Positions 4,601 to 22,694 of a DNA stretch of 22,694 nt are shown piece by piece (the stretch's first letter is position 1; each line of letters opens with the position of its first letter). A program made the position numbers and the translations under genes. Location of the stretch: contig JAYENL010000260.1 in NCBI GenBank assembly GCA_034722055.1, positions 1-22,694 on the forward strand, read 5' to 3'. The notes beneath the pieces are model-generated. The model had not been told where the DNA came from, did not search any database, and saw nothing but the letters and a program-made list of their open reading frames with translations. Origin of the DNA: Armatimonadota bacterium (GTDB lineage Bacteria > Armatimonadota > Zipacnadia > Zipacnadales > UBA5352).

Positions 4601-6143
4601 TGCTCCCGCCCAGGGCGTGCTGAGACAGCGAGTCCTCGTACGATCGGGAGCTGCTCAGCGGCCACTGCCAGAACTGCGCCAGGGCGTGCCGCCAGGCGGT
4701 CAGCTCGCCGCCCAGCTCCTCGCGGTAGTACTTGCTGAAGTGGCGCCAGCCGTAGTAGAACGCGCGCGCTCCTCGGGTGGCGTGGTTCTCCTTCGTTGTC
4801 CTCCCGCCTCGCGCCGCGACATACTGGTAGCCCTGATCCGAGCGCAGGATGGTCAGCAGCGAGCGCGCGATCTCCAGCCGCTCCTCGTCGCTGAAGACCC
4901 CGCAGCCTTCCATCAGGTCCCAGGACATGGTGCGCGTGACGTAGAACAGATGCAGCGCGTTATCCCGATTGGCCAGCCGTTGCTTGAGGGCTCGCGCATC
5001 CTCCAGCATCACGCGCCGGTACTCCTGCGCATGCTCCAGGTCGCCGGTCTTCAGATACGCCGCCGCCGGTTCCATCTGCCGCCGTGCGCCCCCGATAGGC
5101 CAGGGGAGGTGCTTCAGGTCGATGTAGCCCTCGCCGGTCTCGACGGTGAGCGGCACATCGATGACATCCTTGGCCGCTTCGATGGCGCCAACCAGCCGCT
5201 CTGCTCCCGCCTCCAACCCCGCCCGGTCAGAGGCACCGACCACCAGGATGTTCCCGCCGGTGCCCAGGGGATCGACGAGCGGGCGGAGGACGTAGCCTCC
5301 GCCGCCGGGGTAGTAGAGGTCCTCGTAGGTATAGGAGCGGCGGTAGAGGTACTCCACGGCGTCGCTTGTCGCGAGGTTGCCGAGGACGATCAGGTCCCGG
5401 GTCTCGGATGCCGGGTCGATGGCCGAGTGTGCCACCACCGGCGCCTCGCAGCCCTTCTGGCGTAGAGCGGCGCGGATTCTGGTGGCGGCCTGGGTGCCTC
5501 CCTGGCAGGCCACGACCGCGCACCGGCCATCCTGCAAGCGTATGCCCCGCCGCAGCGGCCTGGGCCGCTCCAGCGGTGCCGGCCTGTAGGCCGTGACCTC
5601 GACGTCGTCGAACCACGCGGTGCCCACGGCCCCGTAGAGGCGCAGATTCACCCGGAGGCCCTTTACCTCGGGCGTGATGTCGCTGGCGGCCACGTGCTCG
5701 CTCCAGTCGGCGGTGACAACGGTCGCGCCGGCGACCGCGACGGCGCCCCCGATCCTGATGCCCCCGCTCTGGCCGATGCGCTCCCCGTTCTCATCGGTGT
5801 GATAGAAGCCCACGAAGGCCCCGTGCCCGCGGCTGACCTCCTCCAGCTTCGCCCACACGCGGAGCAGGAACTGCTGGTCGGGCGATTGCACCGGGATCAT
5901 CTCCGAGGTCCAGGAGATGGTCGGCCCGGCCTCCTGCCAGGTGATCTTCAGGCTCCGATCCCCCGAGTGCGCCTCATCCTCGGCCCAGATCAGCGCCTCG
6001 GCCGGTCCCTGCGCCAGCCAGCCCGCCGGTCCGCCATCCTCCGCCGCCTCCTCGAAGCTCGGGTTGGGCGCCAGATTCTCCGCCGCCCGCACCGGGGCTG
6101 CTGTCGCCGTCACCACGACGACCAACATCGCTGAAAGCCGCAT
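1662..6143 (-). CDS. Large secreted multidomain protein: CBM4/9-like domain, helical + heparinase II/III-like lyase region, inserted CBM-like domain, C-terminal FG-GAP/PQQ-like beta-propeller (putative polysaccharide lyase)
   Basis: Start moved to ATG 6143 (AAGGAG RBS; signal peptide MRLSAMLVVVVTATAAPVRA). NLAPNPSFEE...GTAWFDDV (CBM-like); ENHATR; GGSHSYEDANSI and FHNAVTV (heparinase II/III-like); five DxxGDG repeats at the C-terminus. The ORF is secure, the function is inferred. Confidence 0.7.
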   Translation of the reverse strand: MRLSAMLVVVVTATAAPVRAAENLAPNPSFEEAAEDGGPAGWLAQGPAEALIWAEDEAHSGDRSLKITWQEAGPTISWTSEMIPVQSPDQQFLLRVWAKLEEVSRGHGAFVGFYHTDENGERIGQSGGIRIGGAVAVAGATVVTADWSEHVAASDITPEVKGLRVNLRLYGAVGTAWFDDVEVTAYRPAPLERPRPLRRGIRLQDGRCAVVACQGGTQAATRIRAALRQKGCEAPVVAHSAIDPASETRDLIVLGNLATSDAVEYLYRRSYTYEDLYYPGGGGYVLRPLVDPLGTGGNILVVGASDRAGLEAGAERLVGAIEAAKDVIDVPLTVETGEGYIDLKHLPWPIGGARRQMEPAAAYLKTGDLEHAQEYRRVMLEDARALKQRLANRDNALHLFYVTRTMSWDLMEGCGVFSDEERLEIARSLLTILRSDQGYQYVAARGGRTTKENHATRGARAFYYGWRHFSKYYREELGGELTAWRHALAQFWQWPLSSSRSYEDSLSQHALGGSMDNTLDIALQEPQWSADWFASSLAHRMGERCIAISNNMGRTVLLGDTGSGDYATSVFSKLAYALGDGRYSFMIDKRVPLGTSTDEFLRGFNAGVKPQLPEDHLGLSWVPADELYFTTALRSAEGVELEDAFDKLTFRSGFEDSDEYLMIDGTGGGSHSYEDANSIGEFSANERRWLCEIDIFNGPTMAFHNAVTVARGGLGQTQVPQAAELADSAEGEGWAYTATRLPHYNGVDWTRHTLWMPGRYTFILDEMSAREPGDYSFVLGWRSLGSPALQPGVFEAEQDDARQGGVYIDGVELAGAVADSSGKVARAMPSYNALLYRSEEPGDFVEATFQVPEAGRYELVLQTLDYTGRGIIQASIDGVQADGPIDIYHAGRPRRTDHDLGEMQLAAGEHTIRFEVVGRNEASDDCYLAICSLSLLQPGDREAAAQAARNRFRIVFPEDVPVTLDRDTETLGKYLPFSPYRDQALNILEQSMSRDLAEGEAACFFNAFCAWRGDDPTLQVRRLSEHCALVHHAGEFSLVGASADGATVQVGPVTASGRLFLLSPSRVVLHQAEASLEGQALAAGESAGDSLAHALQSAWEEAEGPAEARGERWADVPGAGLLWRSDLPDRPLSVQAARGDEGMRIAAGLEGGTVVQLDAGGAPSAEMQTGGPVHALAAADLDGDGAEELLVGSDDEHVYALDARMQELWRHRVPFLRDQQPWMWWTLGSSKVRAIHPADITGDGRPELLVGAGNMRLQCLNADGENLWRFRTDHGICTTIDTADVFGDGRNLVLAGNGLTSSNGTCWVLDESGERLTRYYNGSWCTSLPAIAVGDLDGDGVNTVITGSNRGDVRAYAPDADYTDEAWVRNLTRPIRSLTILPRAEGAVVAVGSDSGYLCAFDEAGEKVWGVALSSAIPFTALVERPGDDPLLAAGCRDGRLFLVTPAGEIAAMFEAGGRLEAVALADVSGDGVAEVIAATSSPHRVQVVAVPR

Positions 6144-6210
6144 CGTCAACGCTCCTTCTGAGGCTGCACGCAGTTTACGCGGCCCGTTCCCGGCCACCAG
6201 GCGGCGCTGC

Positions 6211-6580: not shown

Positions 6581-9500
6581 TCACTCCACTTTCCGCAGCT
6601 CAAGGGTGCGGAACCAGGCCCGCCTCTGAGACTTGGTGTTGTAGAGGTACACCGCCGCCGTCCGGAACTCGGCGCCGGTGGTGAACGTGGTCTCGAAGCG
6701 CTCCCAGGTGTCGGTGGTGGCCTCCTCGTTGGTGCCGATCTTGTGTACTCGCAGCCCGCGCTCGCCGACGTGTTCCACCACCGCGGCGGAGACGTTCCCC
6801 TCCCCCTCGCTGCGCTTTATCTCCGCGGCGAAAAAGTACTCCGTCTCCGGCTGCAGCGGCACCCGCTGGCGGAAGAAGATGACCTCCTCCGGCATACCGC
6901 CAATCCACGCGGATCCCTCCTCGACGCCGCGCGGGAAGCTGTGGGTGGTGCCGCTGGCGATCCAGTAGTCTGGCGTGTCATCGCCATCGTCGTTGAGGCT
7001 CATGCCGGGGTTGAGCAGCAGCGGGCGCAGCTCGGCGATGCTCTGGCGCTCGCCGCCCGGCCAGCTCACGCGCAGCATCACCAGCGTGGGCCTCTGCAGG
7101 TCCGCCACGCCCTCCACGTCCATCTCGGCCCGCGCGACGCCGCTTGCAGGGATGGTCAGCGCCAACGGCTCCTCCGCGACGCGCAGCGGCGGCCGGGCCT
7201 GCATCGCAACCCTGGCCATCACCGGCTCCTCCGTGAGGTTTACTCCCCGCAGGTCGAGGCTCGTGCTCTCCCCGCCCTCACCCTCGGAGGCCTGCCACAC
7301 GTCCACGGCGTGATGAGGGGCGACCTCATACAGCGCCACCGCGGCCGAGATGGTGCTCGCGGGCACCTCGATCTGCAGCGCGCCATCGGTCACCCGCGGC
7401 TCTTCCACCCGCGCCTCTCCCTCCCGGTCGTAGATCGCCACCCGCTGGGGCCGAGGCCAGCCCTCCGGCAGCTCCAGCGAGCACCGGGCGCCCTCCACGC
7501 GCTGTTCGTTATCGAACGTGAGGACCAGCGCGCGCTCCCCATCCTCCGCCAGGCGGTTCCAGCGCGCCAGCACCTGGTCGTCGGAGACCTGCAGGCCGAT
7601 GGTGTCCATGAACCGGGCGGGGTACAGCCACCGCCTGATGCGCCGGCGCAGCCGCAGCGCGGACTCCAGGCCCGCCCTGCGGATGCGGCTGTCGAAGCGA
7701 TCGCCGTTGAGGAACGCGCGGCTGATGCGCTGATGCAGGGACAGGTGCGAGGCGTTGGAGAGCCCGCTGATGAGGATGTGCTCGGGGAAGGTGTAGTGGT
7801 AGACCTCCGGGTGCGTGCACAGGCCCGATATCAGGTGCAGGCTGGCGTACTGTCCCAGTGCGTCGCCGCAGCCCTCGATGGCGATGATGAATTCAGGCCT
7901 CACCTCGCGTGCGGCCGCAAGGGACGTGCGCAGCATTTGCACGTTCCCTGAGCCCCAGTCGCCGATGTCGTCATGGCCGTGGTCGAGGTTGTAGCAGGGC
8001 TTGGCGCCCGTGGCGCCGGTCTGGTCGATGTAGACGCCGTCGATGCCGAAACGGTGCGCGTACATGTCGGCGACCCAGAACCGCAGATGCTCCTGGAAGC
8101 CCGTGGAGGCCGGGCACATGATGTACCAGCCCAGCGTGGACGCGTAGTAGCCCTGGGCCTCGCCGTCGATCTGGTACAGTCGCCAGCGGTTGAACCAGTC
8201 GATGGGGTGGATCAGCGACAGCGCCTCCCGGGGCAGCTCCGACTTGGGGGTGCGGCGCAGGGCGTCGTTGATGGCCGAGTCGGGCGTCCAGGTCTGGCAG
8301 TTCATGTAGGCCGTCACTCGCCCGCCCTGTTCGTGCACGGCGGCGATGCCCTCCCGGAATCCCTCAGCGCCGCCCAGCGCCGGCGCCGGCCAGTAGAAGT
8401 TCCCGCAGCACTGGTCGATGCCGTCCGCCATCTGGCCCCAGTACTGCAGGTAGGAGATGCCCTGGTGGCGCGCCTGCGCCAGCTTGCCGGTCATGTGATC
8501 GAAGGGCACCGCCATGGCGCCCACCCAGCCGTCCGTCCATTGCACCCACTCGGGATTGTCGGGCGGCTCCATCCACGACAGCGCCCACTCCCGGTAGGCG
8601 TCGGCGGCCCAGTGCCAGTCGCCGGGGTGCACGCCGACCTGGTAGCGGCGCGTCTTCGCCTCGCCGGGGCCGATCAAGGTGTGCGTGCGCATCGACAGGT
8701 CGGCCCCGCGGTTGCCGGCCGCCGGCGCGGACTCGATCTCGGTGGTGGTCAGCTCCCGGTCGAGCATCGCCAGGTAGAGGCCGGCCTCCGCGTCGCACAG
8801 GTCCATCCAGCTCATGGAGGCGCTGCCCAGGTACCACGCCGTCCACGTCTTCGAACTCGCCGGCTGCTCGATGCGCCACCCGCCGGTCTTGGGGATCACC
8901 ACCTCGTCGTCGCGGAAGTCGGCAATAGCCGCGTTGCGCAGCAGCGGGAAGTCCACCCGGATGACCTCGAGATCGCTCCGGTTCGCGACCGTGATCGTCC
9001 AGTCGCTCAGCGGAGTGCCATCGGCGCTCATCTCAACGCGGCTGCGGATGCTCCCGTCCGCCGCGGAGAACTCCACTGCGAGCCCGTCCGGGCGCTCGGC
9101 CAGGCCCTCGAACTGCAGCTCATCGGGCGGGATGAGGGTCATCTCCGATCCGCCCGGCTCTCGCACCGCCAGCCCCACGAAGCTCTCCTGGAGGTGCAGC
9201 GGTGTGGCAGCCGTTCCCGTCGCGCGGTTGAGGATGCCCGCCAGCCGCCCGGTATCGCGCGCCACGGCGATCCGGTAGTGGTCCGTCTCGAGCACCGCCT
9301 CCGCGTCCGGTGCGAGCTGCAATCCCAGCGTCGCTGCCCGCACCACCGGCGAGCCGCCATCCTCGGCGGCGGTGAGCGTGAATCGCACCAGCAGCGCATC
9401 GGTGCCATCGCCGCGCGTCGGAAGGTCCGAGATTCGGTCCGCCGCGACCCATCTGTCTCCACCATCGGCGGATACCTCCGCCGATACGGCCCCTTCGTTC

Positions 9501-10171
9501 AGCTCTGCCTCGTAGCTGACCGCGCCCCACCGAGCCACCGCCGAGGGCAGCACCGGGCGCGAGAGGACCGTGCCGGTCTGCGCCTCCGGCCCGGCGGGAA
9601 CGCCCCTGAGCACCGCTGGGTCGAGCTCCGGGTTTGCGCTGAAGACGATGCAGTCCAGCTTGGCGCCGCCCAGCCAGTTGTGCAGCCGGAACCGGTGCTG
9701 GCCCGCACTGAGGGAGTACTCGGCCAGCGGCGTCCAGTACCATTCGCCGAAGACGCGCTGGTTGCTGTCCCGGATCTGCTGCTCACCGCCGCCGTCCATG
9801 GACTCCACGTGCGTCCAGCTCGCCGGGAAGGGCAGCAGCGCCCGCGCCCAGCCCTGATATGTCCCCGCCTCGGCGATCCGCAGCGGGAACTCAGCATTGG
9901 TGACGCGCGCCAGGCACCGTCCGCCGCCGCAGTCGGGGTCCTCGAGGACGTCATGGCCCTCCTGCATCGTCAGGTTCTCGGCATCCTCAGCCTCCAGGTA
10001 GAGTGTCTCCTCATTCCACAGCGCCGACCACAGGCCGGCGCCGGTGGGCGAGACGTAGCAGCCCCGGCCCTCCGCCAGCGCCAGGGGGACGCTGACCCCC
10101 TCCTGCGCCCGAGCCGCGCTGAAGCCGATGATGATGGTGGCGATGCAGATGAGGGGCAGTGATCGGGACAT
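6581..10171 (-). CDS. Large secreted DUF6259-like putative glycoside hydrolase with N- and C-terminal CBM-like domains
   Basis: Signal peptide (ICIATIIIGFSAARA); LYLEAED CBM-like start; beta-sandwich with HPGDWHWAADAYR; TIM-barrel-like core with VHEQGGRVTAYMN and GIDGVYIDQ (candidate Asp nucleophile) and IAIEG; C-terminal CBM4/9-like domain; RBS GGAGGT. Confidence 0.7.
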   Translation of the reverse strand: MSRSLPLICIATIIIGFSAARAQEGVSVPLALAEGRGCYVSPTGAGLWSALWNEETLYLEAEDAENLTMQEGHDVLEDPDCGGGRCLARVTNAEFPLRIAEAGTYQGWARALLPFPASWTHVESMDGGGEQQIRDSNQRVFGEWYWTPLAEYSLSAGQHRFRLHNWLGGAKLDCIVFSANPELDPAVLRGVPAGPEAQTGTVLSRPVLPSAVARWGAVSYEAELNEGAVSAEVSADGGDRWVAADRISDLPTRGDGTDALLVRFTLTAAEDGGSPVVRAATLGLQLAPDAEAVLETDHYRIAVARDTGRLAGILNRATGTAATPLHLQESFVGLAVREPGGSEMTLIPPDELQFEGLAERPDGLAVEFSAADGSIRSRVEMSADGTPLSDWTITVANRSDLEVIRVDFPLLRNAAIADFRDDEVVIPKTGGWRIEQPASSKTWTAWYLGSASMSWMDLCDAEAGLYLAMLDRELTTTEIESAPAAGNRGADLSMRTHTLIGPGEAKTRRYQVGVHPGDWHWAADAYREWALSWMEPPDNPEWVQWTDGWVGAMAVPFDHMTGKLAQARHQGISYLQYWGQMADGIDQCCGNFYWPAPALGGAEGFREGIAAVHEQGGRVTAYMNCQTWTPDSAINDALRRTPKSELPREALSLIHPIDWFNRWRLYQIDGEAQGYYASTLGWYIMCPASTGFQEHLRFWVADMYAHRFGIDGVYIDQTGATGAKPCYNLDHGHDDIGDWGSGNVQMLRTSLAAAREVRPEFIIAIEGCGDALGQYASLHLISGLCTHPEVYHYTFPEHILISGLSNASHLSLHQRISRAFLNGDRFDSRIRRAGLESALRLRRRIRRWLYPARFMDTIGLQVSDDQVLARWNRLAEDGERALVLTFDNEQRVEGARCSLELPEGWPRPQRVAIYDREGEARVEEPRVTDGALQIEVPASTISAAVALYEVAPHHAVDVWQASEGEGGESTSLDLRGVNLTEEPVMARVAMQARPPLRVAEEPLALTIPASGVARAEMDVEGVADLQRPTLVMLRVSWPGGERQSIAELRPLLLNPGMSLNDDGDDTPDYWIASGTTHSFPRGVEEGSAWIGGMPEEVIFFRQRVPLQPETEYFFAAEIKRSEGEGNVSAAVVEHVGERGLRVHKIGTNEEATTDTWERFETTFTTGAEFRTAAVYLYNTKSQRRAWFRTLELRKVE

Positions 10172-10315: not shown

Positions 10316-11392
10316 TCAGTCCAGGCTCCGCCGCTGCGTGCCCGGCGGCCGGGAGCTGTCCACGAGCTCGTGCGCCCGCCAGTTGCCCTCGTTGGCCGCC
10401 GCGCGGGCGTGGGCCCACACCACGCGGTCGTAGTAGTCGCTCACCGTGCTGCCGGGCGGGCAGATCTCGTCGATGCGCTGCAGCTCCTCATCGCTCAGCT
10501 CCACCTCGCACGCCCTGACCGCCGAGCGCAGGTGCTCCACCGTGCGGCAGCCCACGATCGCCGAGCTGATAAAGGGCTGCTGCATAACCCATGCGATGGA
10601 CAGCTCCGCCAGCGTGCAGTCGCGACCCTCCGCCAACGGCCGCAACTGCTCCACGCGCTCGTAGGCGCCCTCGGTGAGCAGGTAGTGGTCGGGGCCGGCT
10701 CTCCTGAGGCGCGCGTCCTCGGGCGGCTCCTCATCGCGGTGGTACTTGCCCGAGAGAATCCCCTGGCACAGCGGCCCGAAGGTGCACAGGCCGATACCCT
10801 GCCGCAGGCACAGCCACGCCATCTCGTTCTCTAGCCGGCGGTCCAGCAGGTTGTAGGGCGACTGCTCCACCACCACCTGCGGCTGCCCCATGAACTGCGC
10901 CCGGAGGCGCATCTCGCAGACCAGGGAGCTGGGCCACTTGGAGGTGCCGATGTAAAGGATCTTGCCCTGCTGCTGCAGGTCGTCGAGCGTCTCCAGGATC
11001 TCGTTGACCGGCGTGGTGGGATCGACCACGTGCAGGTAGTAGAGGTCGACGCGGTCGGTCTGCAGCCGCCGGAGGCTGGCCTCCACCGCTCGCGTGAGGT
11101 GCTGGCGGCTGGCGCCCCAGTGGTTGGGGCCGTCACCCATCTTCCAGACGGCCTTCGTGGCCAGCACGATCTCGTCCCGCCGGCCGGTGTCAGCCAGCCA
11201 CCGGCCGATGAACTCCTCCGAGCCACCCCGCCGGTATACGTCGGCGGTGTCGAAGAAGTTCACGCCCGCATCCGCCGCCTCGCTCATGATCCGGTGCGCC
11301 TCGTCCTCGTCCGTCCGCGCCGCGTAGCTCATCGTCCCCAGGCAGAGCTTGGAGACGCGCATCCCGCTGCGGCCGAGCTGTCGGTATTCCAT
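10316..11392 (-). CDS. Aldo/keto reductase (AKR12/Tas-YajO-like)
   Basis: MEYRQLGRSGMRVSKLCLGTM, NFFDTADVY, IVLATK, SLRRLQTDRVDLYYLH (D/Y/K/H tetrad), QSPYNLL, PLCQGILSGKY; RBS GGAGG. Confidence 0.95.
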   Translation of the reverse strand: MEYRQLGRSGMRVSKLCLGTMSYAARTDEDEAHRIMSEAADAGVNFFDTADVYRRGGSEEFIGRWLADTGRRDEIVLATKAVWKMGDGPNHWGASRQHLTRAVEASLRRLQTDRVDLYYLHVVDPTTPVNEILETLDDLQQQGKILYIGTSKWPSSLVCEMRLRAQFMGQPQVVVEQSPYNLLDRRLENEMAWLCLRQGIGLCTFGPLCQGILSGKYHRDEEPPEDARLRRAGPDHYLLTEGAYERVEQLRPLAEGRDCTLAELSIAWVMQQPFISSAIVGCRTVEHLRSAVRACEVELSDEELQRIDEICPPGSTVSDYYDRVVWAHARAAANEGNWRAHELVDSSRPPGTQRRSLD

Positions 11393-11576: not shown

Positions 11577-12980
11577 CTACCAGTCGTAGTGCCGCACCGG
11601 CAGCGGGTCGCGCGACTGCGCTACGCGGTCCAGCAGCAGCCGCTGCATCTCCGCGCGCTGTGACGCGTACCCCGGGTCGCCCCAGAGGTTGCGGAACTCG
11701 CCGGGGTCCTCGCGCAGGTCGTAGAGCTCCCCGAAGTCCTCGCCCGGGTAGTGGATCAGCTTCCAGTCCTGGGTGCGCACGGCCCACTGCTCGACGCGCT
11801 CTGGGTTGAGGCCCCGGGCCGCCAGGTCCGGCGCCTGCCGCTCCTGCAGCAGCACCGACTCCCGGCCGCGCGCGCCCTCCTCGCCGTGCAGGATTGGCGC
11901 CATCGACCGCCCCTGCACCCCCGGTGGGCAGTCCACCCCGCACAGCTCCAGGATGGTGGGCATCACATCGACGCCCTCCACCAGCTCCTCGGTCACCGCC
12001 CCGGACGCCCCACCCGGTATGCGCCAGATCATGGGCACGTTCGCGACCTGGTCGAACAGGAAGGGCCCGTGCCGCCACTGGAAGTGGTCGTTGAGTGACA
12101 GACCGTGGTCGGCCACCAACAGCACCACGGTCTCCTCCGCCACGCCCGCCTCCTCCAGCGCCTCCATCAGCCGCCCGAACTGGTGGTCGATGAAGCGCAT
12201 CTGGTCGTAGTAGCTGGCGATGTAGCGCCGCAGCGTGGGCTCGTCGGGCTGGCGACCGTTGGCAACGTAGCCCTCATAGCACTCCCGGTAGAAGGGGGGC
12301 TTGCCCTCCAGGTCCTCCGCGCGCAGCTCCGGGACCGGCACGTCCGCGGGATCGTAATGACCCGCCCAGCCCTCCGGAGGCGTGCACGGCGGCGACAGCT
12401 CATGGTAGGAGCAGTGGCAGTAGAAGGGCGACCCGCTCTTGGCCTGCCGGTGGATGAAGTCGATGGCCCGGCCCGTGATCCACTGCAGCTCGTGGGCCTC
12501 CTGGGGCATGCCGCGCCGCATCCGCGCCCGCTCTGACAGCTCCGGATGCTGCTCGTCGATGAACTGCAGGTACTCCTCGCCCAGGCGGTTCTCGCTGATG
12601 TGCACCTCGCCAAAGCCGTAGTAGGGCCCCTGGATTATGGGGACGTTGCCGGTGTACTGCTGCTGGGGCTCGAGGTGGATCTTGCCCGCCGCGCAGGTGG
12701 CGTAGTCGGCCTCCCGCAGCACCTGCGGCATGGTCACCTCGCTGTCTCGCAGCCGGACGCCGTTCGCCCACACTCCGTGCACGTGCGGGTAGCGGCCGGT
12801 GTAGAGTGAGGCCCGATTGGGCATGCACACCGAGTGCGTGCCGAAGGCCCGCTCGAATCGGACCCCCTGGCCCGCAAAGGCGTCGATGTGCGGAGTCTCC
12901 AGCAGGTCATTGCCGTAGCAGCCGAGGGTGTCCTTCCTGTGCCCGTCGGTGATGAAGAGTAAAACATTATGTTGGCTCAT
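11577..12980 (-). CDS. Cytoplasmic formylglycine-dependent (S1) sulfatase
   Basis: NVLLFITD, active-site CMPNRASLYTGRYP (CxPxR), GKIH, ADHG, ELYDLREDPGE; no signal peptide. Start overlaps the LSR stop, and the RBS GAGGTG lies inside the LSR coding sequence. Confidence 0.92.
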   Translation of the reverse strand: MSQHNVLLFITDGHRKDTLGCYGNDLLETPHIDAFAGQGVRFERAFGTHSVCMPNRASLYTGRYPHVHGVWANGVRLRDSEVTMPQVLREADYATCAAGKIHLEPQQQYTGNVPIIQGPYYGFGEVHISENRLGEEYLQFIDEQHPELSERARMRRGMPQEAHELQWITGRAIDFIHRQAKSGSPFYCHCSYHELSPPCTPPEGWAGHYDPADVPVPELRAEDLEGKPPFYRECYEGYVANGRQPDEPTLRRYIASYYDQMRFIDHQFGRLMEALEEAGVAEETVVLLVADHGLSLNDHFQWRHGPFLFDQVANVPMIWRIPGGASGAVTEELVEGVDVMPTILELCGVDCPPGVQGRSMAPILHGEEGARGRESVLLQERQAPDLAARGLNPERVEQWAVRTQDWKLIHYPGEDFGELYDLREDPGEFRNLWGDPGYASQRAEMQRLLLDRVAQSRDPLPVRHYDW

Positions 12981-14484
12981 CGAGATTCACCTCGTCGATG
13001 CCTCGAAGCGGGGACCAGAATGACGGTAGTCGCACCGTTCGGGGAGCGATGTCCTCCAGGGTGTGGTGCATCCGGATCCGGTTCCCCCACACCTCTACGT
13101 AGGAATACACGCGGCCGAGGAAGTCTCGGCGACGGGCCACGTCGTCGGACTCGCGGATAGCCTCGATAGCCGCGAGGCCTGCCTCCCGCATCCAGCGGGC
13201 GTCGCGTTCGGGCACATCCGCCTGTGCCTCCAAACGTCTCAGCCGCTGCCGGAGTCGATCACGGCGGTCAATCAAGGGCGCGTTCAACTGCGGCAGCATA
13301 TCCTCCGGCAGGGCATCGGCGTGGGCGGCGCGGACATTGGTGGCGATCTCGTCCTCCACGCTGGCCACTTCGTCGCGGAGTTGTTGCTGCTCACCGCGAT
13401 GGTGACGGGACTGCCGGCGCTGCTGATGGATACGCGCCGCCCGCTCCAAGTGTTCGTCGGTGATCAGCCGTCCCAGCCACGCCCACAGGATGGCTTCGAC
13501 CGCCTCCGCACGGGTGTTCCACGGCGGATGGCGCTGGTCTTCCGGGAGGTCGAGCCGTGCGGCGCACACGTAGTAGGTCCGCTGGCCCGCGACGGCTACG
13601 TTGGTGTTGACTGGTCCGCCGCAAACCCCGCACTGCATCAGTGGCGTGAGGGTGGTGCTTCGGCTGCGGGGGTGCACATCCGCCCGCTGACGCAGCCGCC
13701 GCTGCACATTCTGCCAGCGTTCGCTGCCGATAATGGCTTCATGCTGGCCTGGATACGTCTCGTCCCGGTGGACGACGAGACCGCGATAGACCGGATTGTA
13801 GAGCATACGCCCGACCTGTCCCGCACTCCACCGCCCAGCCCCGCGGACTTTAGGAACGCCCCGGCGATTACACTCCTGTGCCAGCTCCTGTAGAGACGCG
13901 CCATGGGCGTAGCGGTCAAACAGCCAGCGGACTAACTCGGCGTCCTCCGGTACGATGACGATGGGTTCGTCGGGGATGGGATTGCCGCGCTCGTCGACCT
14001 GCTTGCGGTAGCCCATAGCTGGCGGGCCCAGGGTAAGGCCGTGCTGAGCGCGCTCGGCGATGCCGCGCCGGCTGCGCCGGCGGATGCGCCGCAGTTCGTC
14101 GGCGGCCACCGCAGCCTTGATGTCCAGCAGCAGCCGCTGGTCCTCGTCGGCGTAGTCGGCGCTGTCGGAGACGGAGTAGAGGTGGTAGCCGGCCTGCACC
14201 AGCTCGTTCGCCAAGATCAGATGCTGGGCGTAGTCCCGGTGGAGCCGATCCAGATCCACCACATACAGGCCGTCGGCGTCGCCGGCCTCCAGCCGCTCAT
14301 GCGCCTCTCGCAGGCCGGGACGGTCAGGGTCATCGCCATGTTGCGCCGGGTCCCGGATGACCCCCACCACAGCGTCGCCGCGGGCTTCGGCCCGCTCCCG
14401 GCACAGACGCTCCTGCGCCGGCAGGCTGTAGCCGTGTTCGGCCTGGTCGGGGGTGCTCACCCGACAGTAGATGAGGACATTCAT
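12967..14484 (-). CDS. Large serine recombinase / integrase (resolvase catalytic + recombinase + Zn-ribbon + coiled-coil)
   Basis: YCRVST catalytic Ser, GYSLPAQ, DRPGL, DLDRLHR, GPPAMGY, LYNPVYRG...HEAII..W (recombinase domain), CGVCG...YYVC Zn ribbon, coiled coil; 505 aa. Confidence 0.93.
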   Translation of the reverse strand: MNVLIYCRVSTPDQAEHGYSLPAQERLCRERAEARGDAVVGVIRDPAQHGDDPDRPGLREAHERLEAGDADGLYVVDLDRLHRDYAQHLILANELVQAGYHLYSVSDSADYADEDQRLLLDIKAAVAADELRRIRRRSRRGIAERAQHGLTLGPPAMGYRKQVDERGNPIPDEPIVIVPEDAELVRWLFDRYAHGASLQELAQECNRRGVPKVRGAGRWSAGQVGRMLYNPVYRGLVVHRDETYPGQHEAIIGSERWQNVQRRLRQRADVHPRSRSTTLTPLMQCGVCGGPVNTNVAVAGQRTYYVCAARLDLPEDQRHPPWNTRAEAVEAILWAWLGRLITDEHLERAARIHQQRRQSRHHRGEQQQLRDEVASVEDEIATNVRAAHADALPEDMLPQLNAPLIDRRDRLRQRLRRLEAQADVPERDARWMREAGLAAIEAIRESDDVARRRDFLGRVYSYVEVWGNRIRMHHTLEDIAPRTVRLPSFWSPLRGIDEVNLDEPT

Positions 14485-15200: not shown

Positions 15201-17315
15201 TCAGCTCTCCCAATGCATGCCGATGTACTCCACCGCCTGGGCCGCATCGAGGGGTCGGGTCGTGTTACCGGCACGGATGTAGAATCGCCTTTCCCCCTCG
15301 GCCTCGACGTAGGCCGGACGCGCGCTTGCCTCGACTTCCACAACACAAACCTGCTTCTCTCCCGCCATCTCGAAAGTGGTATGGATGTATTTGGCGAACT
15401 CAGTGCCGATGTGGTTCTCAACGAGCTGCATCAGCTTCTGCTCATAACCGTCGTTGTCTCCGCGGCCGAGAGTCTGGAGGTCGTGCTCGATTCCCAGCAC
15501 GTGGCCATCGTCGCTGACGCCGACCACCAACTTGCCCCCATATGAGTTAAGGAACCCGGCAATCGTCTTCACGATGACCTGTTCAAGCGCCTTGTTCACT
15601 TGCTCCTGCCGCATGTCCCAGCGGAGCGAAGACTTGAACTCCACCCGCTGGCTCTCGCCCGCATGGATCAGGTCCTGCACAGTCTCAGGAGCAGGCGGTG
15701 CCTGGTCACCCATTGTGTCAGCCATGAACTGATTGATCGCATTGGCAATGAGCTGCCGACGTGCCTCAAGGAACTCTTCATAGTGGTCGAGACGCCACAG
15801 GTGCGGATCGGTAGGCACGAATTGCTTCTCCAGAGCGCCGGGATACTGCTCCGCAATCGCTGGCAGGTACTCGCTTGGAGGCGTGTCTCCGAGAGACACG
15901 TTGCTGTCCGCAGTCAGGAAGGCACGGTTCGCGATTTCGTTGACCTTCTTGCTGTGCAAGTGGTTTGCAGAATCATAGCCGCCATCGCCGTACAGCAACG
16001 ATCGAGGAAAGATGTGGTGGTTGTGAAGACGGTAACGCTCACCAACCGTCTGCCCCAGGGGCATTCCATTGAACCAGTCAATAGCGCCATGCCCCTTTGC
16101 CGCGATGAAGGCCATCCGGAAGATGGGATGCTGTATCCCGCGACCTTCCATATCCGCGGCCTTTAGGTCCAATCTGCCACGTTGGTCGACGATGGCTTCG
16201 CATAGGCCCACGCACGGCTCGTCGCTCCGCACGACGTAGGAGAGGTCATGATCAAGTCGGGTATCGACCTGCGATGTATAGCGCGACCAGGTATGCGCCG
16301 CATACAGCCAGTGCACGAACCTGCGCATCTCCAGTTCGCGGCTGAACTTGCCCCCGTTGCGAGCCAGGTACACCACAACGGGCACGAGGACGTTCGTCGT
16401 GTTCAGGTCCTCTGTGGAGTGGATATGGGCGTGGGCGGGGAGGATGCCGATGCTGTAGTCCAAGACTTGAGAGAGTGTTTCCCATCCCTCCTGCAGCGAG
16501 TCTGCTGGCTCCTCGTGTATGGTCTCATACAGTGCGCGGCCCTTCACGACGCCGACGAGGCACCTGACCATGAATCCCAAGTCGAACTCGAAGTGGAGCC
16601 GCGCCAGGTCGGCGAGCTTCTCCTTCATGACGCGTCGGGCATGAGGCCACTTGCCGCAGATGTGAGCAAGGGCAAGCTCAGCGTCGCTGAGTTTGGTGCC
16701 AAGGCTGTTCACACGGTCGAATACATCTATGGCGTCATCGATGTTGGCGTCGCCAGGAACAAGCTGAATCGGGTAGGTTCGGCTGCGGACAGCGCGGAGG
16801 CAGTTGAGGTTATCATTGAAGAGCGTGCTGAGTTCCAGCGCTTCCTCATCGTCCTCCCCAATCTCTCGACCGATGACTATCGGGTTAACGCTCCCGTCTT
16901 GGAAGCACTCCACGACGGACACCCAGGCCGGGTCGCCCTTCATCCGCGAGGCTTGGTAGTACTGGAAGCTGCCATCGTGGAGGTTGAAGTACAGGTCCCG
17001 CGGATCGTTAGTGATCTCCGCCTCGCGGTAGTAAGGCGGAATCTCGTTCTCCATCAGCAGGAAGAGCGTGGTCAGGCGCTGTTGACCATCCAAGATCACC
17101 TGGACTGTCCCGACCTTGTCCGTGGGCACAGCATCGTGCTTGATGTCCGGCGGATTCTGCGTCTTCCAGAACAGCAGGCTGCCGGTGGGGTAGCCTCGGT
17201 AGAGAGACACCATCAACTGCTTCGCCTGCTCCTTCTCCCAGACGTACTCACGCTGGAACTCGGGCAACACCAGGTCGAACTGACGGATGGCTTGGAGTAG
17301 TTCGGCTATCTCCAT
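15201..17315 (-). CDS. GmrSD-family type IV restriction nuclease (DUF262 + HNH/DUF1524-like) fused to a C-terminal Schlafen AlbA_2 domain
   Basis: LPEFQREYVW, GYPTGSLLFW, ILDGQQRLTTL, FDRVNSLG (DUF262); HHIFP...NEIANRAFL...N (HNH-like); GESQRVEFKSS, KTIAGFLNSYGGKLVVGVSDDG, FYIRAGNTT (AlbA_2). Confidence 0.88.
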   Translation of the reverse strand: MEIAELLQAIRQFDLVLPEFQREYVWEKEQAKQLMVSLYRGYPTGSLLFWKTQNPPDIKHDAVPTDKVGTVQVILDGQQRLTTLFLLMENEIPPYYREAEITNDPRDLYFNLHDGSFQYYQASRMKGDPAWVSVVECFQDGSVNPIVIGREIGEDDEEALELSTLFNDNLNCLRAVRSRTYPIQLVPGDANIDDAIDVFDRVNSLGTKLSDAELALAHICGKWPHARRVMKEKLADLARLHFEFDLGFMVRCLVGVVKGRALYETIHEEPADSLQEGWETLSQVLDYSIGILPAHAHIHSTEDLNTTNVLVPVVVYLARNGGKFSRELEMRRFVHWLYAAHTWSRYTSQVDTRLDHDLSYVVRSDEPCVGLCEAIVDQRGRLDLKAADMEGRGIQHPIFRMAFIAAKGHGAIDWFNGMPLGQTVGERYRLHNHHIFPRSLLYGDGGYDSANHLHSKKVNEIANRAFLTADSNVSLGDTPPSEYLPAIAEQYPGALEKQFVPTDPHLWRLDHYEEFLEARRQLIANAINQFMADTMGDQAPPAPETVQDLIHAGESQRVEFKSSLRWDMRQEQVNKALEQVIVKTIAGFLNSYGGKLVVGVSDDGHVLGIEHDLQTLGRGDNDGYEQKLMQLVENHIGTEFAKYIHTTFEMAGEKQVCVVEVEASARPAYVEAEGERRFYIRAGNTTRPLDAAQAVEYIGMHWES

Positions 17316-17457: not shown

Positions 17458-20400
17458 TCACCATGTCGAACTCGGTCCCGCGCTCAGTCTTTCCCATTCT
17501 CTGGCGATCGTGCTGGCACGCTGCAGTTGCCGGCCCCAGCTCGCGTTAAGCGATTCCGCCTTCTTGCCGGCGAACTGCTCGATCGTGTCAGCGCGGACCG
17601 AGAAGTCGCCCGGGCGTACGCCGGCCACCGAGACCAGCGCTGGCAGGGGAACTTCGCCGTCAGCGAGCCGCCTCTGCAGCAGTGCGCCCACATGGATCTG
17701 TTCGTCGTCCTCGACATCATCGTCCAGCGACGGGTGGGACCTCACGAAGTCGATGGCCATGAGCACCTCGAGCGAAGCTCGTGCGTCTCGCCTCAGCGCG
17801 TCCAGTCGACCCTCCAGATAGCGTTCATGGCGGCGGCTCTCGAAGTCCAAGCGTTGCTGCAGGCGGCGGCTCAGTTCGTCTTTGAGACCCTCCGCGGTGT
17901 CTTCCGCACGAATGATCTGCTCAGCACCCTCCGCTGCGTCCAGGGCGGCTGTCAGGGCCGCCAGCGAGGACACGGTCGTAAGGGTCCCGTCGCTGACGGC
18001 ATAGTACTGCACCAGTCGCTCGCCCTCGGCTTCAGCCTGAACCCGCATGACCGGCCCTGCCGCATCATCCGGCGCCGATGGGGTACTGACCAGGTCCTCG
18101 AATGTCGTGCTGCCGTGGGCCAAGTAGGTGGCGGTGTCGGGCTTCAGATCGTAGACTTCCGGCCGGAATGTCACCACGCCGTCATTGGCTGGTCCTACGA
18201 GCCGATACAGCCCTGGCTCGACCTCCTCGAACCGATAGTCTGACTCCAGCAGCTCACTGCCCAAGACCAGCTCCTCCAACTCGGCAGGTCGTACCGGGAC
18301 TTGGTCCGCCGAGGGTGCCTCCGGGGACGTCCTCCGAGTGTTCTCCTCGAGGTTCAGTGCCTCGCGCCTCAGTTTTTCATACTGCGCAGCGAGGTCCTCC
18401 ACGATCCGCGCGATGCGACTATCTCTCTCAGCCGGATCGGAGAACGCCGCGTCGCGGATCAGGTCTGGGAGTTGCGCCAGGATCGGCTGTAGTGGCCCGA
18501 CTACCCACTGGAAGCTGCCGATCCTCTGCCCAAGTCGCCTGTGGATGCGGGCCTCGACGGTGTCCTCGTAGAAGTAGTTGATGACCCTGACTTCCTCGGC
18601 TTCCTGGCCGATGCGGTCGATCCGTCCGATGCGCTGTTCGACCTTCATCGGGTTCCATGGCATGTCGTAGTTGATCAGCATCGAGCAGGTTTGCAGGTTC
18701 AGGCCTTCGCTCGCAGCCTCGGTACACAGGAGGGTCTTGACGTCCTCGCCCTCTGCAAACAGGTTCTTGATGTGCTCCTTCGAGACCGTCTGCCACTGCT
18801 CGCCATCCCATCGCTCCCCGCCGCGCCCTGAGTAGCAGGCCACCTGACGGCGGTAGACCGTGACAAGCTTATCGCGGATGTAGTCCATGGTGTCGGTGTA
18901 CTGCGTGAAGACCACGACGGTCCGGTGCGTCCGGAAGGCCTCTTCGAGATCCCTCGTGAAGCGGTCGAACTTCGAGTCCTCGCCGCAGCGTTCGATATCC
19001 TGCAGGAACTCCTCGATGAATTGGATCTCCTCTGCCACGTTGATAGCGAGCGGCTCTTCCTGGCCCTCGATCTCCTGGCTCACGTCGCGGCTGAGGTCCT
19101 CATCCTCATAGTCCTCAGCAACCAGACCGCCGGTGCTCTCCTCATCCTCCCCCCGCAGATGCGCCACGCGACGCTGCAGGCTGCGCTCGATGGCGTAGAA
19201 GCTGGATGTCAGGCGTCGCCGGTAGATCGTCATCACGAAGCCCACGCCGGCGCGGTTCTGCTCATCGGCCGCGACGTAGACGTCCCGGATGTACTTCTCG
19301 ATGCGGTCATATAGCTCTCGCTCTTCCCGCGTTGCGAACTCGATGAACTCGTCGTGCGGAGCGCGATCGGGGATGTTCTCGTCCAGCAGGCCCTGCCGGC
19401 GGTAGCTGCGCAGCAGGTCGCGCGTGTGGCGGAAGACGTAGTGATGCAGCGGCGTGTGCGCGCGGAAGAACTGCGCAGCCGCTGCCAGCTCTTCATCGCT
19501 CCAGCGAAGCATGGTGGTGTCGCACTGCCCGCTCTCACCCATGTCCTTGAGCTCCTGGAGCTTGATGATGCCAAGCTCATCGCGCGCCAACGCCTCCGCC
19601 GCCTCGTCCCATGTCCCCACATGCTCCAGGTAGTCGTGTAGCATCTCGCACAGAAATGAGAGGTCGGCCCGGTCGGGGAAGTGTCGCAGCTCCTCGAAGT
19701 AGCGCGTGAAGAGTTCGCCTCCCAGCGCTCCCCACTCTCCGCCGAGGCCCATCGCCTCCATCAGGTCCCATACTTCGATGGGGTCGAGCTGCATGGGCGT
19801 GGCGGTCAGCAGGAGCATGCCGCGGGTCCTGTCGCGGATCTGCTGCAGTAGGTGCAGCAGCCGGTTCGGCCGGTACTCCTCGCCGGTAGGCTGCCTGCGG
19901 CGCGCGTGGTGCGCCTCGTCCACTACCACCAGGTCCCACTCGTCCGCCTCCAGCAATGTCGGAGTCCGCTCCTGACGCTTGGCGAGATGGCTGGAGGCGA
20001 TGATCACCTCGTGCGTGTTCCAGGGGTTGTCGGGGTTCTGAGGTGTCTCGTTCCCGTGGGCGTCCACGAAGCCGCTGCCGGTGTACTGCCAGGTGTTGAG
20101 GTTGAACTTCTCGATGAGCTCCTCCTGCCACTGTGTGACCAGAGACGCCGGCACGAGAATGAGGCAGCGCTTCACCCGCCCCGGCAGCAGCAGGCGCTTG
20201 AGCGCAATGCCCGCCTCGACCGTCTTCCCCAGCCCGACCTCGTCGCAGAGCAGGTAGGGCTCGGGGTAGGTCTCGACGATCTGGTCTGCGACCTTCTTCT
20301 GGTGCGGCCACAGATCGACCGTCGCGAACTCCTCGGCCAGCAGGTCGCCGTTCGGCATGTAGGGGGCGTCCCGGACGAACTGGAACAGCCACCTCTCGCG

Positions 20401-21162
20401 CTCCAGCCGCCTCTCGCGCTCCTCGAGGACCTCGGGGTCCTCCGGATCGTGCTCGGGCGGCTCCTCGGGCGCGATGTCGATGAACCTCTGCCGGACTGCA
20501 TCCGGGAAGTCGATCACCCGCGTGAAGCGGGCCCGGTCCTCCCAGAGCTCCTCGAACTCCTCAAGCTCCGCCTCAATGCGCGCGTCATCGCCGGGGCGCC
20601 AGGACCAGAAGGCGTTGAAGCTCTCCCGGTTCCTCAGCCAGCCGCGCAGGCTCTCGTTGTTGCTGCCGGTGAACGCCACCCGGTTGCCGCGCGCGTCGGT
20701 GAAGATGCCGACCTTCTCGTGGAACAGCTCGTCCTCGGCGACGTCCTGGAGGGTGCCGTCTTCATTGACGGGGACCGCGATCTTGATCTCCAGTGTCCCC
20801 CGCGCGATCATCCACGCCAGCGCCTGCAGCCGCTCCCGCTCGATCCGCTCCGCGGGGTACTCCCACTCTTCCAGCGCCTTCTCCTGGATGCGCTGGCGGA
20901 GGTCGTAGCCCTCGTTGATGGCGCGCACGTCCTGCTTCGACAGGTGCGCGCTCACCAGCAGGCGCATGTGGCCATCGTTGAGGATGAGGCCGGCGATGCC
21001 GCGGGCCGCAGCGGACAGCGCCGTGGAGGAGAAGAACCCCGCCTTGCGGTCATACCGCACGCTGCGCTGCAGCGCGGGGATGTAGAAGTCGGTCAGCGGG
21101 CTGCCCGCCTCGCGACTGTAACGCAGCTTCCACTCATAGGTCGTCAGGTCCGCGTCCACCAA
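17458..21162 (-). CDS. PLD-nuclease / SNF2-family helicase fusion (restriction-like system nuclease-helicase)
   Basis: PLD motif FHEKVGIFTD-x-TGSNN (HxKxxxxD..GSxN); Walker A LLCDEVGLGKT; DEAH (VVVDEAHH); LLTATP; TEAASEGLNLQ; EQRIGRIDRIGQ. Start is TTG 21162 or GTG 21159. Confidence 0.92.
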   Translation of the reverse strand: MVDADLTTYEWKLRYSREAGSPLTDFYIPALQRSVRYDRKAGFFSSTALSAAARGIAGLILNDGHMRLLVSAHLSKQDVRAINEGYDLRQRIQEKALEEWEYPAERIERERLQALAWMIARGTLEIKIAVPVNEDGTLQDVAEDELFHEKVGIFTDARGNRVAFTGSNNESLRGWLRNRESFNAFWSWRPGDDARIEAELEEFEELWEDRARFTRVIDFPDAVRQRFIDIAPEEPPEHDPEDPEVLEERERRLERERWLFQFVRDAPYMPNGDLLAEEFATVDLWPHQKKVADQIVETYPEPYLLCDEVGLGKTVEAGIALKRLLLPGRVKRCLILVPASLVTQWQEELIEKFNLNTWQYTGSGFVDAHGNETPQNPDNPWNTHEVIIASSHLAKRQERTPTLLEADEWDLVVVDEAHHARRRQPTGEEYRPNRLLHLLQQIRDRTRGMLLLTATPMQLDPIEVWDLMEAMGLGGEWGALGGELFTRYFEELRHFPDRADLSFLCEMLHDYLEHVGTWDEAAEALARDELGIIKLQELKDMGESGQCDTTMLRWSDEELAAAAQFFRAHTPLHHYVFRHTRDLLRSYRRQGLLDENIPDRAPHDEFIEFATREERELYDRIEKYIRDVYVAADEQNRAGVGFVMTIYRRRLTSSFYAIERSLQRRVAHLRGEDEESTGGLVAEDYEDEDLSRDVSQEIEGQEEPLAINVAEEIQFIEEFLQDIERCGEDSKFDRFTRDLEEAFRTHRTVVVFTQYTDTMDYIRDKLVTVYRRQVACYSGRGGERWDGEQWQTVSKEHIKNLFAEGEDVKTLLCTEAASEGLNLQTCSMLINYDMPWNPMKVEQRIGRIDRIGQEAEEVRVINYFYEDTVEARIHRRLGQRIGSFQWVVGPLQPILAQLPDLIRDAAFSDPAERDSRIARIVEDLAAQYEKLRREALNLEENTRRTSPEAPSADQVPVRPAELEELVLGSELLESDYRFEEVEPGLYRLVGPANDGVVTFRPEVYDLKPDTATYLAHGSTTFEDLVSTPSAPDDAAGPVMRVQAEAEGERLVQYYAVSDGTLTTVSSLAALTAALDAAEGAEQIIRAEDTAEGLKDELSRRLQQRLDFESRRHERYLEGRLDALRRDARASLEVLMAIDFVRSHPSLDDDVEDDEQIHVGALLQRRLADGEVPLPALVSVAGVRPGDFSVRADTIEQFAGKKAESLNASWGRQLQRASTIAREWERLSAGPSSTW

Positions 21163-21188: not shown

Positions 21189-22694
21189 CTACTCGTCGTC
21201 CTCGTCCTCTTGGTCTTCGTCGTCGGCGCCCACGAAGGCCATCTCGAGCTGGACGGGCTCGGGGATGTCGATGCGGCCGCTCAGGAAGGCCAGCGCCACC
21301 TCGCGCAGGCTGTCCCATTCGCTCCGCGCCTGCGGAATCGCCCTCAGCAGCGCCTCCACCGCCGCCACGAACTCCTCCCGCTGCGTCAGCTTCCGGTCCT
21401 CCAGGAACCGCCGGCACGCGCTCAGGCCATCCTCGTCAAAGATGTAGATAGCCGCGTGGATGGCGTCGATGATCGAGCTGAACTCGTCCGCCTGCGGGTC
21501 GAGGCTCCCGCGCTTAACCCGCCTCCGCGGCTCGCGCAGCACGATGTCCTGGCTCTTCTTGTAGGCGATGTCGTGGCCCTTGATCGTGTCGTCGAGGTCC
21601 ACGCCCACCGCCATAGCCAGCTTGCGGCCCTCGTCGTAGGGGAAGCGGCCGGCCTTGAACAGGTCCCACGCGAGGATCGCCCAGCGCGTCGGCGGGTCGA
21701 AGGGCACCTCGCCATGGGCGCGGGACAGCAGCGTCCGCACCCGGTAGTTCGTCACCACGCGCCGGGCCTCGTCCAGCGCCACGTCCGGGCGGATCTCCTC
21801 TCCCGAGCGGTCGCGGACCGGCCAGTGGCTGGAGATCACCTGCAGCGCGGGGCCGAACGTGGACACCATCAGGTCCACGCCCTCCATCCCCAGGTCCTCG
21901 AACTCGGCGACCTTCTCCCGCACCTTCTCCCGCACTTCAGGCTCCACGTCGTCCCACCAGTAGCCGGCACCGTTCCTCCCGTCCGGGCGCTTGCGGCAGA
22001 CCAGCAGAATGGTGCTGGAGCAGGCGTTCTTCTTCGCCTGATGCAGGGAGTGTTCGCTTTCCGTATGGACCGGCCAGGCGGCGGTGATCTCGAAGCCGGC
22101 ACCGATGAGGGCCGCCGCCAGCGTGTCCCACGCCTCCACCCGCTTGTGGGTGAACATCATGGTCATGACGCCGTGCGGCTTGAGGACCGTGTGGCAGCGG
22201 TTGAAGACTGCCCGCATCTTCGCCTCATAGTCCTGCTCCGCGAGCTTCCTTTTCGAGCCCTTGACGCCCTCAAAGCGCGCGACGTTGGCGACGGCCTCGC
22301 GGTCCTTGTCCGTCAGCTCCGTGTCGAACCACTCGGGGTAGATATCGCCGAGCGTGCGCTTCTGCCAGACGTAGAAGAAGTCCGAGCACTCCGCGTACAT
22401 CACATTGTCGTAGTAGGGGGGATCGACGCAGATCACGTCCACGCTCTCGGGCTCGCGTCCACGGTAGGCCGCCGCGTCGCCCTGTGTGACGTGGATGCGG
22501 GCCTCGACCGCGTCGTCGATCAAGTTTTGCGCCGGAGCGGCGAGTTCAGCCAGGCCTCCCACGGCGTCAACGATCTGATCTCGAGCCCAGTCAATGCCCA
22601 GACCGTCAACAACCGGGTTCCACTCGCCGTGGCTCCACTTGAAGCTGAAATCGTGGCGTTGGAATACGTGTTTCACGATTTGTCGGGTGTACTC
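21189..22694 (-). CDS. DUF1156-family adenine-specific DNA methyltransferase (5'-truncated by the window edge)
   Basis: Motif IV VDPPYYDNVMYAECSDFFYVW, LKPHGVMTMMFTHK..AW, WPVHTE, STILLVCRKR. The frame stays open to the window end (EYTRQIVKHVFQRHDF), so the listed start at 22676 is not the true start. Acidic C-terminal tail. Confidence 0.88.
   Translation of the reverse strand, partial: EYTRQIVKHVFQRHDFSFKWSHGEWNPVVDGLGIDWARDQIVDAVGGLAELAAPAQNLIDDAVEARIHVTQGDAAAYRGREPESVDVICVDPPYYDNVMYAECSDFFYVWQKRTLGDIYPEWFDTELTDKDREAVANVARFEGVKGSKRKLAEQDYEAKMRAVFNRCHTVLKPHGVMTMMFTHKRVEAWDTLAAALIGAGFEITAAWPVHTESEHSLHQAKKNACSSTILLVCRKRPDGRNGAGYWWDDVEPEVREKVREKVAEFEDLGMEGVDLMVSTFGPALQVISSHWPVRDRSGEEIRPDVALDEARRVVTNYRVRTLLSRAHGEVPFDPPTRWAILAWDLFKAGRFPYDEGRKLAMAVGVDLDDTIKGHDIAYKKSQDIVLREPRRRVKRGSLDPQADEFSSIIDAIHAAIYIFDEDGLSACRRFLEDRKLTQREEFVAAVEALLRAIPQARSEWDSLREVALAFLSGRIDIPEPVQLEMAFVGADDEDQEDEDDE

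Follow-up and report, generated by a model that had tools for sequence, protein, structure and literature searches.

The window, a stretch of 22,694 nucleotides (nt) that forms the entire contig C260 of the 6.1-Mb draft genome of an Armatimonadota bacterium (G000; 330 contigs), carries a large serine recombinase (LSR) gene whose 3′ end runs into the start of an S1 formylglycine-type sulfatase gene on the same strand (Table 1). How these two genes come to share their ends is the subject of this account. The LSR stop codon (12967-12969) falls across sulfatase codons 4-5, so that the two open reading frames (ORFs) overlap by 14 nt, and both the sulfatase ATG and a sequence resembling a ribosome-binding site (RBS) lie inside the last LSR codons, exactly where a first-pass annotation of this DNA had placed them. 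The same codons overlap one arm of the putative attachment (att) site described below. The G+C content is mostly 0.58-0.67 over 14.4-20.4 kb, upstream of the LSR gene, compared with 0.65-0.75 in the first 12.8 kb of the window.

Table 1. Positions of genes and sequence features in the window
Feature	Position	Strand	Basis or remark
Host aldo-keto reductase	10316-11392	-	3′ of the sulfatase; likewise downstream in the empty-site relative
S1 formylglycine-type sulfatase	11577-12980	-	467 aa; open frame, rebuilt N-terminus
CAC, +17..+19 (Asp-Thr codons)	12928-12930	-	common to both known targets; candidate host-side motif, post hoc, n = 2
14-bp core TCTTCATCACCGAC	12945-12958	-	common to stub junction G000:C159:28870-28883
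Probable crossover dinucleotide GA	12946-12947	-	first two bases of the Asp12 codon; 5-bp G392 core and symmetry peak
Replacement codons 1-11 and first base of the Asp codon	12947-12980	-	12959-12980 differs from the native stub; 12947-12958 same as the stub, probably of element origin
LSR gene	12967-14484	-	505 aa; Resolvase, Recombinase and weak zinc ribbon
Distal motif AACATA	12968-12973	-	positions 27-22 from the centre; mirrored as TATGTT on the C159 arm; predicted site of the zinc-ribbon domain
RBS-like GAGGTG	12988-12993	-	within LSR coding sequence; 7 nt before the sulfatase ATG; sequence observed, function putative
Cargo: GmrSD-N and AlbA_2 protein	15201-17315	-	domain matches
Cargo: PLD and SNF2 helicase, anti-phage-like	17458-21162	-	below curated cut-offs
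Cargo: DUF1156/HmaB-like DNA methylase, C-terminal half	21189-22694	-	cut by the contig end

The LSR has the resolvase (PF00239, E 7e-30) and recombinase (PF07508, E 3e-19) domains, both above their cut-offs, while its zinc ribbon falls below (PF13408, 20.3 bits against 25.3). In a five-row alignment Y6, R8 and S10 of the YxRxS catalytic motif are invariant, C285, C288, C307 and H319 are invariant within the clade, and PF13408 is present on the homologues P0002 and P0004. By the NCBIfam equivalogs the enzyme is not a CcrA, CcrB, CcrC or XisF recombinase (best scores 80.6 bits against 900 for CcrB and 76.9 against 375 for XisF), and DUF4368 has no match in it. The sulfatase (PF00884, E 1e-41) has the CxPxR motif at residue 52 (C52-M-P-N-R), Asp12 near its N-terminus and ADHG at 290, the calcium and CxPxR motifs being defined as in PMC5066984, according to which the N-terminal Asp binds calcium and is conserved in 96% of S1 sulfatases. 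The second Asp of the second calcium motif is a Gly in this enzyme and its orthologues, and its scores against the sulfatase subfamily models are all below the cut-offs.

Sulfatase codons 3-7 all end in A or T, as the first-pass annotation had noticed. This is the only such case among the 50 sulfatase starts of the genome, 45 of which score 0 or 1 out of five. Such codons are a hint but, alone, insufficient as proof of integration, because one of the 24 orthologues that could be parsed (four of the 28 were left unparsed) has five of five with no LSR upstream. This orthologue (L231, G176:C276) has no LSR within 1.5 kb, and its start may reflect ordinary bias or an old scar.

The two junctions and the crossover

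The replaced start of the sulfatase is found elsewhere in the same genome. None of 25 orthologues of the window sulfatase (59-88% identity) begins with QHN, and none of the 24 parsed has an LSR upstream. Upstream of the closest orthologue (L005; its protein is 88% identical), 2.5 kb of DNA align with another contig of the window's genome, C159. At C159:28848 there is an orphan stub with its own RBS and start, which reads MSSANVLVFITD and then exits the sulfatase frame, the peptide ending after 23 residues. The 14-bp core shared by the stub and the window has three exact copies in the genome, the third within an unrelated gene. L005 is colinear with C159 up to the core and with the window from the core onward; by this alignment, L005 carries an empty, uninterrupted sulfatase site. 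The orphan stub and the island-free relatives for which the first-pass annotation had proposed to look are thus both present.

Evidence from sequencing runs comes from assembled contigs only, in four runs, two of which may be the source of this DNA. In run X4, stub sequence makes up a loose end of 16 letters at 12958 on a contig of the sulfatase body, and a further contig spans the occupied junction. Run X3 has a contig of depth 58.7 that reaches 12915 from the sulfatase side and one of depth 15.6 that starts at 12977 on the LSR side. Empty and occupied sites therefore coexist in these runs, through strain mixture or excision, between which contigs cannot tell.

A second element has the same anatomy at a different sulfatase. 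The collection of species-level genomes holds a single close LSR, L001, which is 56% identical to the window LSR. Its gene ends within the start of an SDQQRWD-type sulfatase, which shares 29% identity with the one in the window. A metagenome locus, L047, has the same junction and HmaB/HmaC-like cargo, with an LSR 55% identical to the window's and 93% to that of L001; L048 is identical to L001 and cut before the LSR end, hence no independent case. A QH start is absent from all 11 orthologues of the second sulfatase, which have ordinary starts (one truncated locus left out). The stub of the second sulfatase, at G392:C41, reads SSPNIVFFFSD and reaches a stop three codons after the Asp. Stricter patterns and a query with upstream DNA gave the other junction or nothing, and a looser pattern gave four matches, one the stub and three intact sulfatases. 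Over the whole contig collection, the stub-junction pattern also gave four matches, the known G392 stub and three that are not sulfatase stubs.

For the window junction the exact core measures 14 bp, for that of G392 it measures 5 bp (TCCGA), and each contains the GA of the Asp codon. When the dyad symmetry of the element-side arms was scored over 16 candidate centres with 26 pairs, the peak fell at G|A in both elements: 19 pairs matched in G392 and 12 in the window, against 11 at the next best centre of each. Crossover is therefore likely at the GA of the Asp12 codon, judged from core and symmetry. The first-pass annotation had proposed that an LSR island integrates in the sulfatase N-terminus and rebuilds the 5′ end of the gene. 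Stub, core and empty site bear this out, but the junction, which it had put near 12955-12970, lies further in. Because the crossover is at the Asp codon, codons 8-11, which it took for host-like from about 12960, are probably supplied by the element. The element is thus likely to provide the RBS, the start codon and codons 1-11, that is, the strand leading to the calcium-ligand Asp. Since the LSR stop is on the element side of the cut, the LSR gene would be the same whether integrated or excised.

The att arms contain a distal motif that differs in position between element and host. ACATA occupies positions 26-22 in all four element-side half-sites, while the left arms of the host sites have ACRT at 21-18, formed by the Asn-Ile/Val codons, and in the right arms, where the Asp-Thr codons lie, only R21, R19 and T18 are kept. 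A 5-bp inward shift of the zinc-ribbon motif in the host site, with a near-invariant T18/T23, is described for a Listeria integrase in the accessible parts of PMC3783163; here, all four host half-sites have a T at position 18, and all four element half-sites have one at position 23. By this analogy, the zinc-ribbon domain would read the Asn-Ile/Val codons (22-18) in the host site and ACATA (26-22), 5 bp further out, in the element site. Each arm also encodes the residues that its own target has beside the Asp, FIT-D in one and FFS-D in the other. The AACAT-ATGTT and GATGA-TCATC dyads pointed out by the first-pass annotation are both where it placed them, but as att centre they were rejected: their centres differ from each other and from the att centre, and the first, which arises because the distal motif AACATA runs into the Asn-Val codons, is missing from the second element.

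With both junctions considered, it is highly probable that a defence island has integrated here, its right junction lying in the window, that its LSR inserted it at the Asp codon of the sulfatase, and that the tail of the LSR gene supplies the new start. In this model the LSR would insert the island at the conserved Asp codon near the sulfatase start, the native start would be left behind as the stub at the other junction on C159, and the tail of the LSR gene would give a replacement RBS, start and N-terminus, keeping the sulfatase translated. The overlap of the two genes suggests that the sulfatase would be expressed from the LSR transcript by translational coupling. The native sulfatase promoter would now face the first ORF of the island on C159.

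Targets of the recombinase clade

The clade of close LSRs is small. It has four 90% clusters in the protein collection, and six sequences (the four clusters, L001 and L048) form one branch with a support (SH-like approximate likelihood-ratio test) of 100 in a quick tree of 48 rows. Downstream DNA is readable for two close homologues of the window LSR, L001 and L047, and both overlap a sulfatase start; the first-pass annotation had proposed this check. Sulfatase targeting is shown, as far as genomic context goes, for two lineages on three loci.

The wider LSR family has 113 representatives at E 1e-30 or better. A 40-row profile of this family gave 46 loci from the class and a 400-genome sample of the phylum; the only ones with a sulfatase beside the LSR are two clade members, none being found at the 44 more distant loci, nor at 82 further distant loci that are mostly viral and of which many end soon after the LSR stop. 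A single-protein scan of viral contigs gave no relative of the window LSR. The pattern of the occupied junction, allowing three mismatches in 79 genomes of the class, gave two exact matches, both already known, and an LSR is present at none of the 28 other loci fetched, a set that leaves out two matches. Of the four other LSR matches in the genome of the window, two are followed by no sulfatase, and the remaining two extend past the ends of their contigs. In the nearest outgroup with context (G149, about 31-33% identity), an alpha/beta-hydrolase follows 147 nt after the LSR stop; the start of this hydrolase (L057:3112-4146) is A/T-rich. On another contig (G377:C25, 33.7 kb) the same LSR gene is found inverted at both ends (L184 and L196).

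Taken together, the balance tips moderately towards a clade of Armatimonadota serine integrases that reads the DNA behind the S1 signature (Asn-Ile/Val...Asp...Asp-Thr) and has hopped between paralogues at the same metal-ligand codon. About 35 bases of the att arm would then serve at once as the LSR C-terminus, a binding site, and the RBS and N-terminus of the sulfatase. Each element seems to be tuned to one sulfatase subfamily, the lineage having moved between paralogues at the homologous codon.

Objections and rival explanations

Several observations weigh against the model as a whole or against parts of it. In both genomes the two junctions are on separate contigs, and the whole island is on no single assembled piece; upstream synteny did not link the G392 stub, on another contig, to its gene. 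For run X4, the empty site is deduced from 16 letters of a single contig, and the four runs come from the same study. The symmetry peak of the window itself is weak, so that the placement of the crossover at GA leans on the second element, and the right arm of the host site fits the distal motif poorly. Promoter-like sites within the LSR gene are at chance level (1 against 0.4 +/- 0.6), and no directionality factor was found among the island-arm ORFs scanned. As to the range of targets, L001 and L047 are one lineage, and two target classes are known. The clade proteins P0003, P0004 and P0074 (a fragment) are known without DNA context; P0074 has a C-terminus like those of the two known members, whereas P0003 and P0004 end 3-4 residues earlier. 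Many of the control contigs stop soon after the LSR, 44 of 81 having 200 nt or more.

It is scarcely conceivable that the LSR merely abuts a normal sulfatase whose A/T-rich codons are ordinary 5′ bias: L231 is equally A/T-ending without an LSR, but the stub, the shared core, the empty site (L005 and run X4) and the second element of the same anatomy contradict this. A regulatory switch, in which programmed excision would restore the native sulfatase promoter as in the skin elements of sporulating bacteria, would accord with the empty and occupied junctions found together in X4 and with the depth step in X3, which fits a minority of occupied sites. It is nevertheless very unlikely, since the integrated sulfatase already has an open frame, an RBS and a start, which makes excision unnecessary, the LSR is missing in all parsed orthologues, the cargo is an ordinary defence cassette that is also carried by an element with a 27%-identical LSR in G278, and the depths can be explained by strain mixture. 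It is also unlikely that the replacement start is a non-functional by-product of att similarity, the sulfatase being silent or weak in island carriers. The LSR gene has no promoter above chance, att sites must resemble the target near the core in any case, and a rebuilt dusA gene is expressed at a lower level (PMC8409611, in the parts accessible). However, 11-13 codons before the Asp, beyond the region that needs identity, each element has a start in frame and a purine-rich RBS; a hydrophobic strand is retained between start and Asp, and neither sulfatase frame is broken. Over the 60 nt that precede the crossover, L001 and L047 are also 98% identical, against 83-92% on either side, although att function alone could explain this.

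The remaining alternative concerns choice of target: one LSR might use many sulfatase paralogues per genome, with dozens of sites where sulfatases are numerous, and the first-pass annotation had likewise expected many potential host att sites. The left motif AACRT does occur at 22-18 before the Asp/Glu codon in 35 of the 50 sulfatase starts of the genome, and the clade occupies two sulfatases that are only 29% identical. The right-arm CAC, in contrast, is present in only six of the 50 and both motifs together in only four, by a two-motif rule that was derived after the fact from the two targets. One of these four, C82, is orthologous to the sulfatase that the second element occupies and has no element in it; there is no second close copy of the window LSR in its genome. 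L001 and L047 use the same sulfatase subfamily, and each element is known at one target. Broad choice among paralogues is accordingly rather doubtful. The few two-motif starts, the empty C82 and the arms that encode the residues of their own targets make it more likely that each enzyme keeps to a single subfamily, the target changing in the course of evolution, than that an enzyme chooses freely among paralogues.

Cargo and relation to known systems

The cargo in the window ends within a methylase gene at the contig end. Contig C323 probably holds the N-terminal half of the methylase, together with a DUF499 ATPase, as judged by comparison with genome G278, where the same cassette is in one piece: it is colinear with C323 (DUF499 ATPase and methylase N-terminal half), followed by a gap of about 760 nt and then by the window. 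The LSR near this cassette in G278 is a different one (27% identity), and the 16 kb that were read there contain no sulfatase; therefore, cargo and integrase are exchangeable. If C323 is wholly inside, the island is estimated to be at least 33 kb. No contig-end overlaps of 10 nt or more were found that would close it. Contig C119 was considered as the missing middle and rejected, since the full-length methylase homologues match C323 and not C119. C119 (of G000) itself carries a second DUF499 and DUF1156 cassette, and an ORF near its start resembles a tyrosine integrase by eye. On C323 (L262:1034-10434), a SIR2-TPR(-PIN) protein of 1364 aa is followed by an unknown protein of 920 aa, a ParA-like protein and an unknown protein of 442 aa, a candidate defence operon.

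On the C159 arm, the first ORF of the island (L032:6930-7853, 307 aa) starts 10 nt after the stop of the stub peptide; it has no Pfam or PADLOC match and a weak nuclease-like lead in Atlas. The next one noted (L032:8069-9055, 328 aa) is low in G+C, has no Pfam or PADLOC match and contains a motif similar to the N-terminus of a proteasome-type protease. In the window, two very large ORFs, 1662-6197 (1511 aa, with a beta-propeller end) and 6581-10171 (1196 aa, DUF6259), split a block that is contiguous in L005 and L002 and consists of the sulfatase, the aldo-keto reductase, DUF498 and a second sulfatase. A repeat of about 70 bp at 42-121 has many copies in the genome, often close to contig ends, and is similar in appearance to repetitive extragenic palindromic sequences.

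The closest parallels are islands that rebuild the 5′ end of their target. In the accessible parts of the sources, dusA-specific elements (IMEVchUSA3) give the gene a new N-terminus, expression after integration having been shown (PMC8409611), and the integrative and conjugative element SXT inserts in the 5′ end of prfC and supplies an N-terminus (PMC8409611, PMC5812530). Like these, the present island has the native 5′ stub at one junction and, at the other, an in-frame start that comes from the element. It acts in the same way without belonging to their group, since it has an LSR and a sulfatase target. The integrases of dusA elements and SXT are of the tyrosine type. The replacement start here is, moreover, nested in the recombinase's own last codons, and the target is from a large paralogous enzyme family instead of a single-copy housekeeping gene, sister elements using different paralogues. 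Single-copy genes or tRNAs are the docking sites of most islands described so far.

The cargo resembles the Hma/DUF499-DUF1156-PLD helicase cassettes, matching HmaB, HmaC, DUF1156, DUF499 and PLD-helicase models (PADLOC and NCBIfam), but its scores are below the curated cut-offs and its methylase is split over two contigs. With the sites of the Listeria innocua/A118 integrases, as described in the portions of PMC3783163 available, the element shares a near-palindromic site about a central dinucleotide and, in the left arm, a distal motif 5 bp inward in the host site. It differs in that the motif reaches 26-27 and not 24, the host right arm is weak and, as far as can be seen, it is not a prophage; its sites are predicted from sequence. 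In common with the LSR classes of Durrant et al. (PMC10083194, in the passages available), conserved coding segments are targeted, and related LSRs fall in divergent target clusters; unlike in those passages, the two targets here are homologous positions in one protein family and not unrelated sites. The word 'sulfatase' is absent from the passages and eight supplementary files of Durrant et al. that were searched, and no sulfatase-targeting recombinase was found in the open-access literature, subscription journals being outside this coverage. The clade also differs from the multi-targeting LSR clade that bears DUF4368, in lacking this domain and in having one target class per LSR cluster, on three readable loci.

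Sulfatases would thus be a new natural class of LSR target, known from both junctions of two elements whose enzymes share only 56% identity, with an att arm under a triple coding constraint. The sister enzymes, which dock at one and the same codon in two distant paralogues, provide a pair for swaps of zinc-ribbon and recombinase domains, which is relevant to integrase engineering. For annotators, sulfatase starts and upstream regions in these genomes can derive from mobile elements. If the model is true, the clade is a natural retargeting series for change of serine-integrase specificity, and it would rewire sulfatase expression in sulfatase-rich bacteria. Compared with the systems above, integration with replacement of the 5′ end is well supported, and what appears to be new is the target family, the replacement start nested in the recombinase tail and the retargeting between distant paralogues at one codon.

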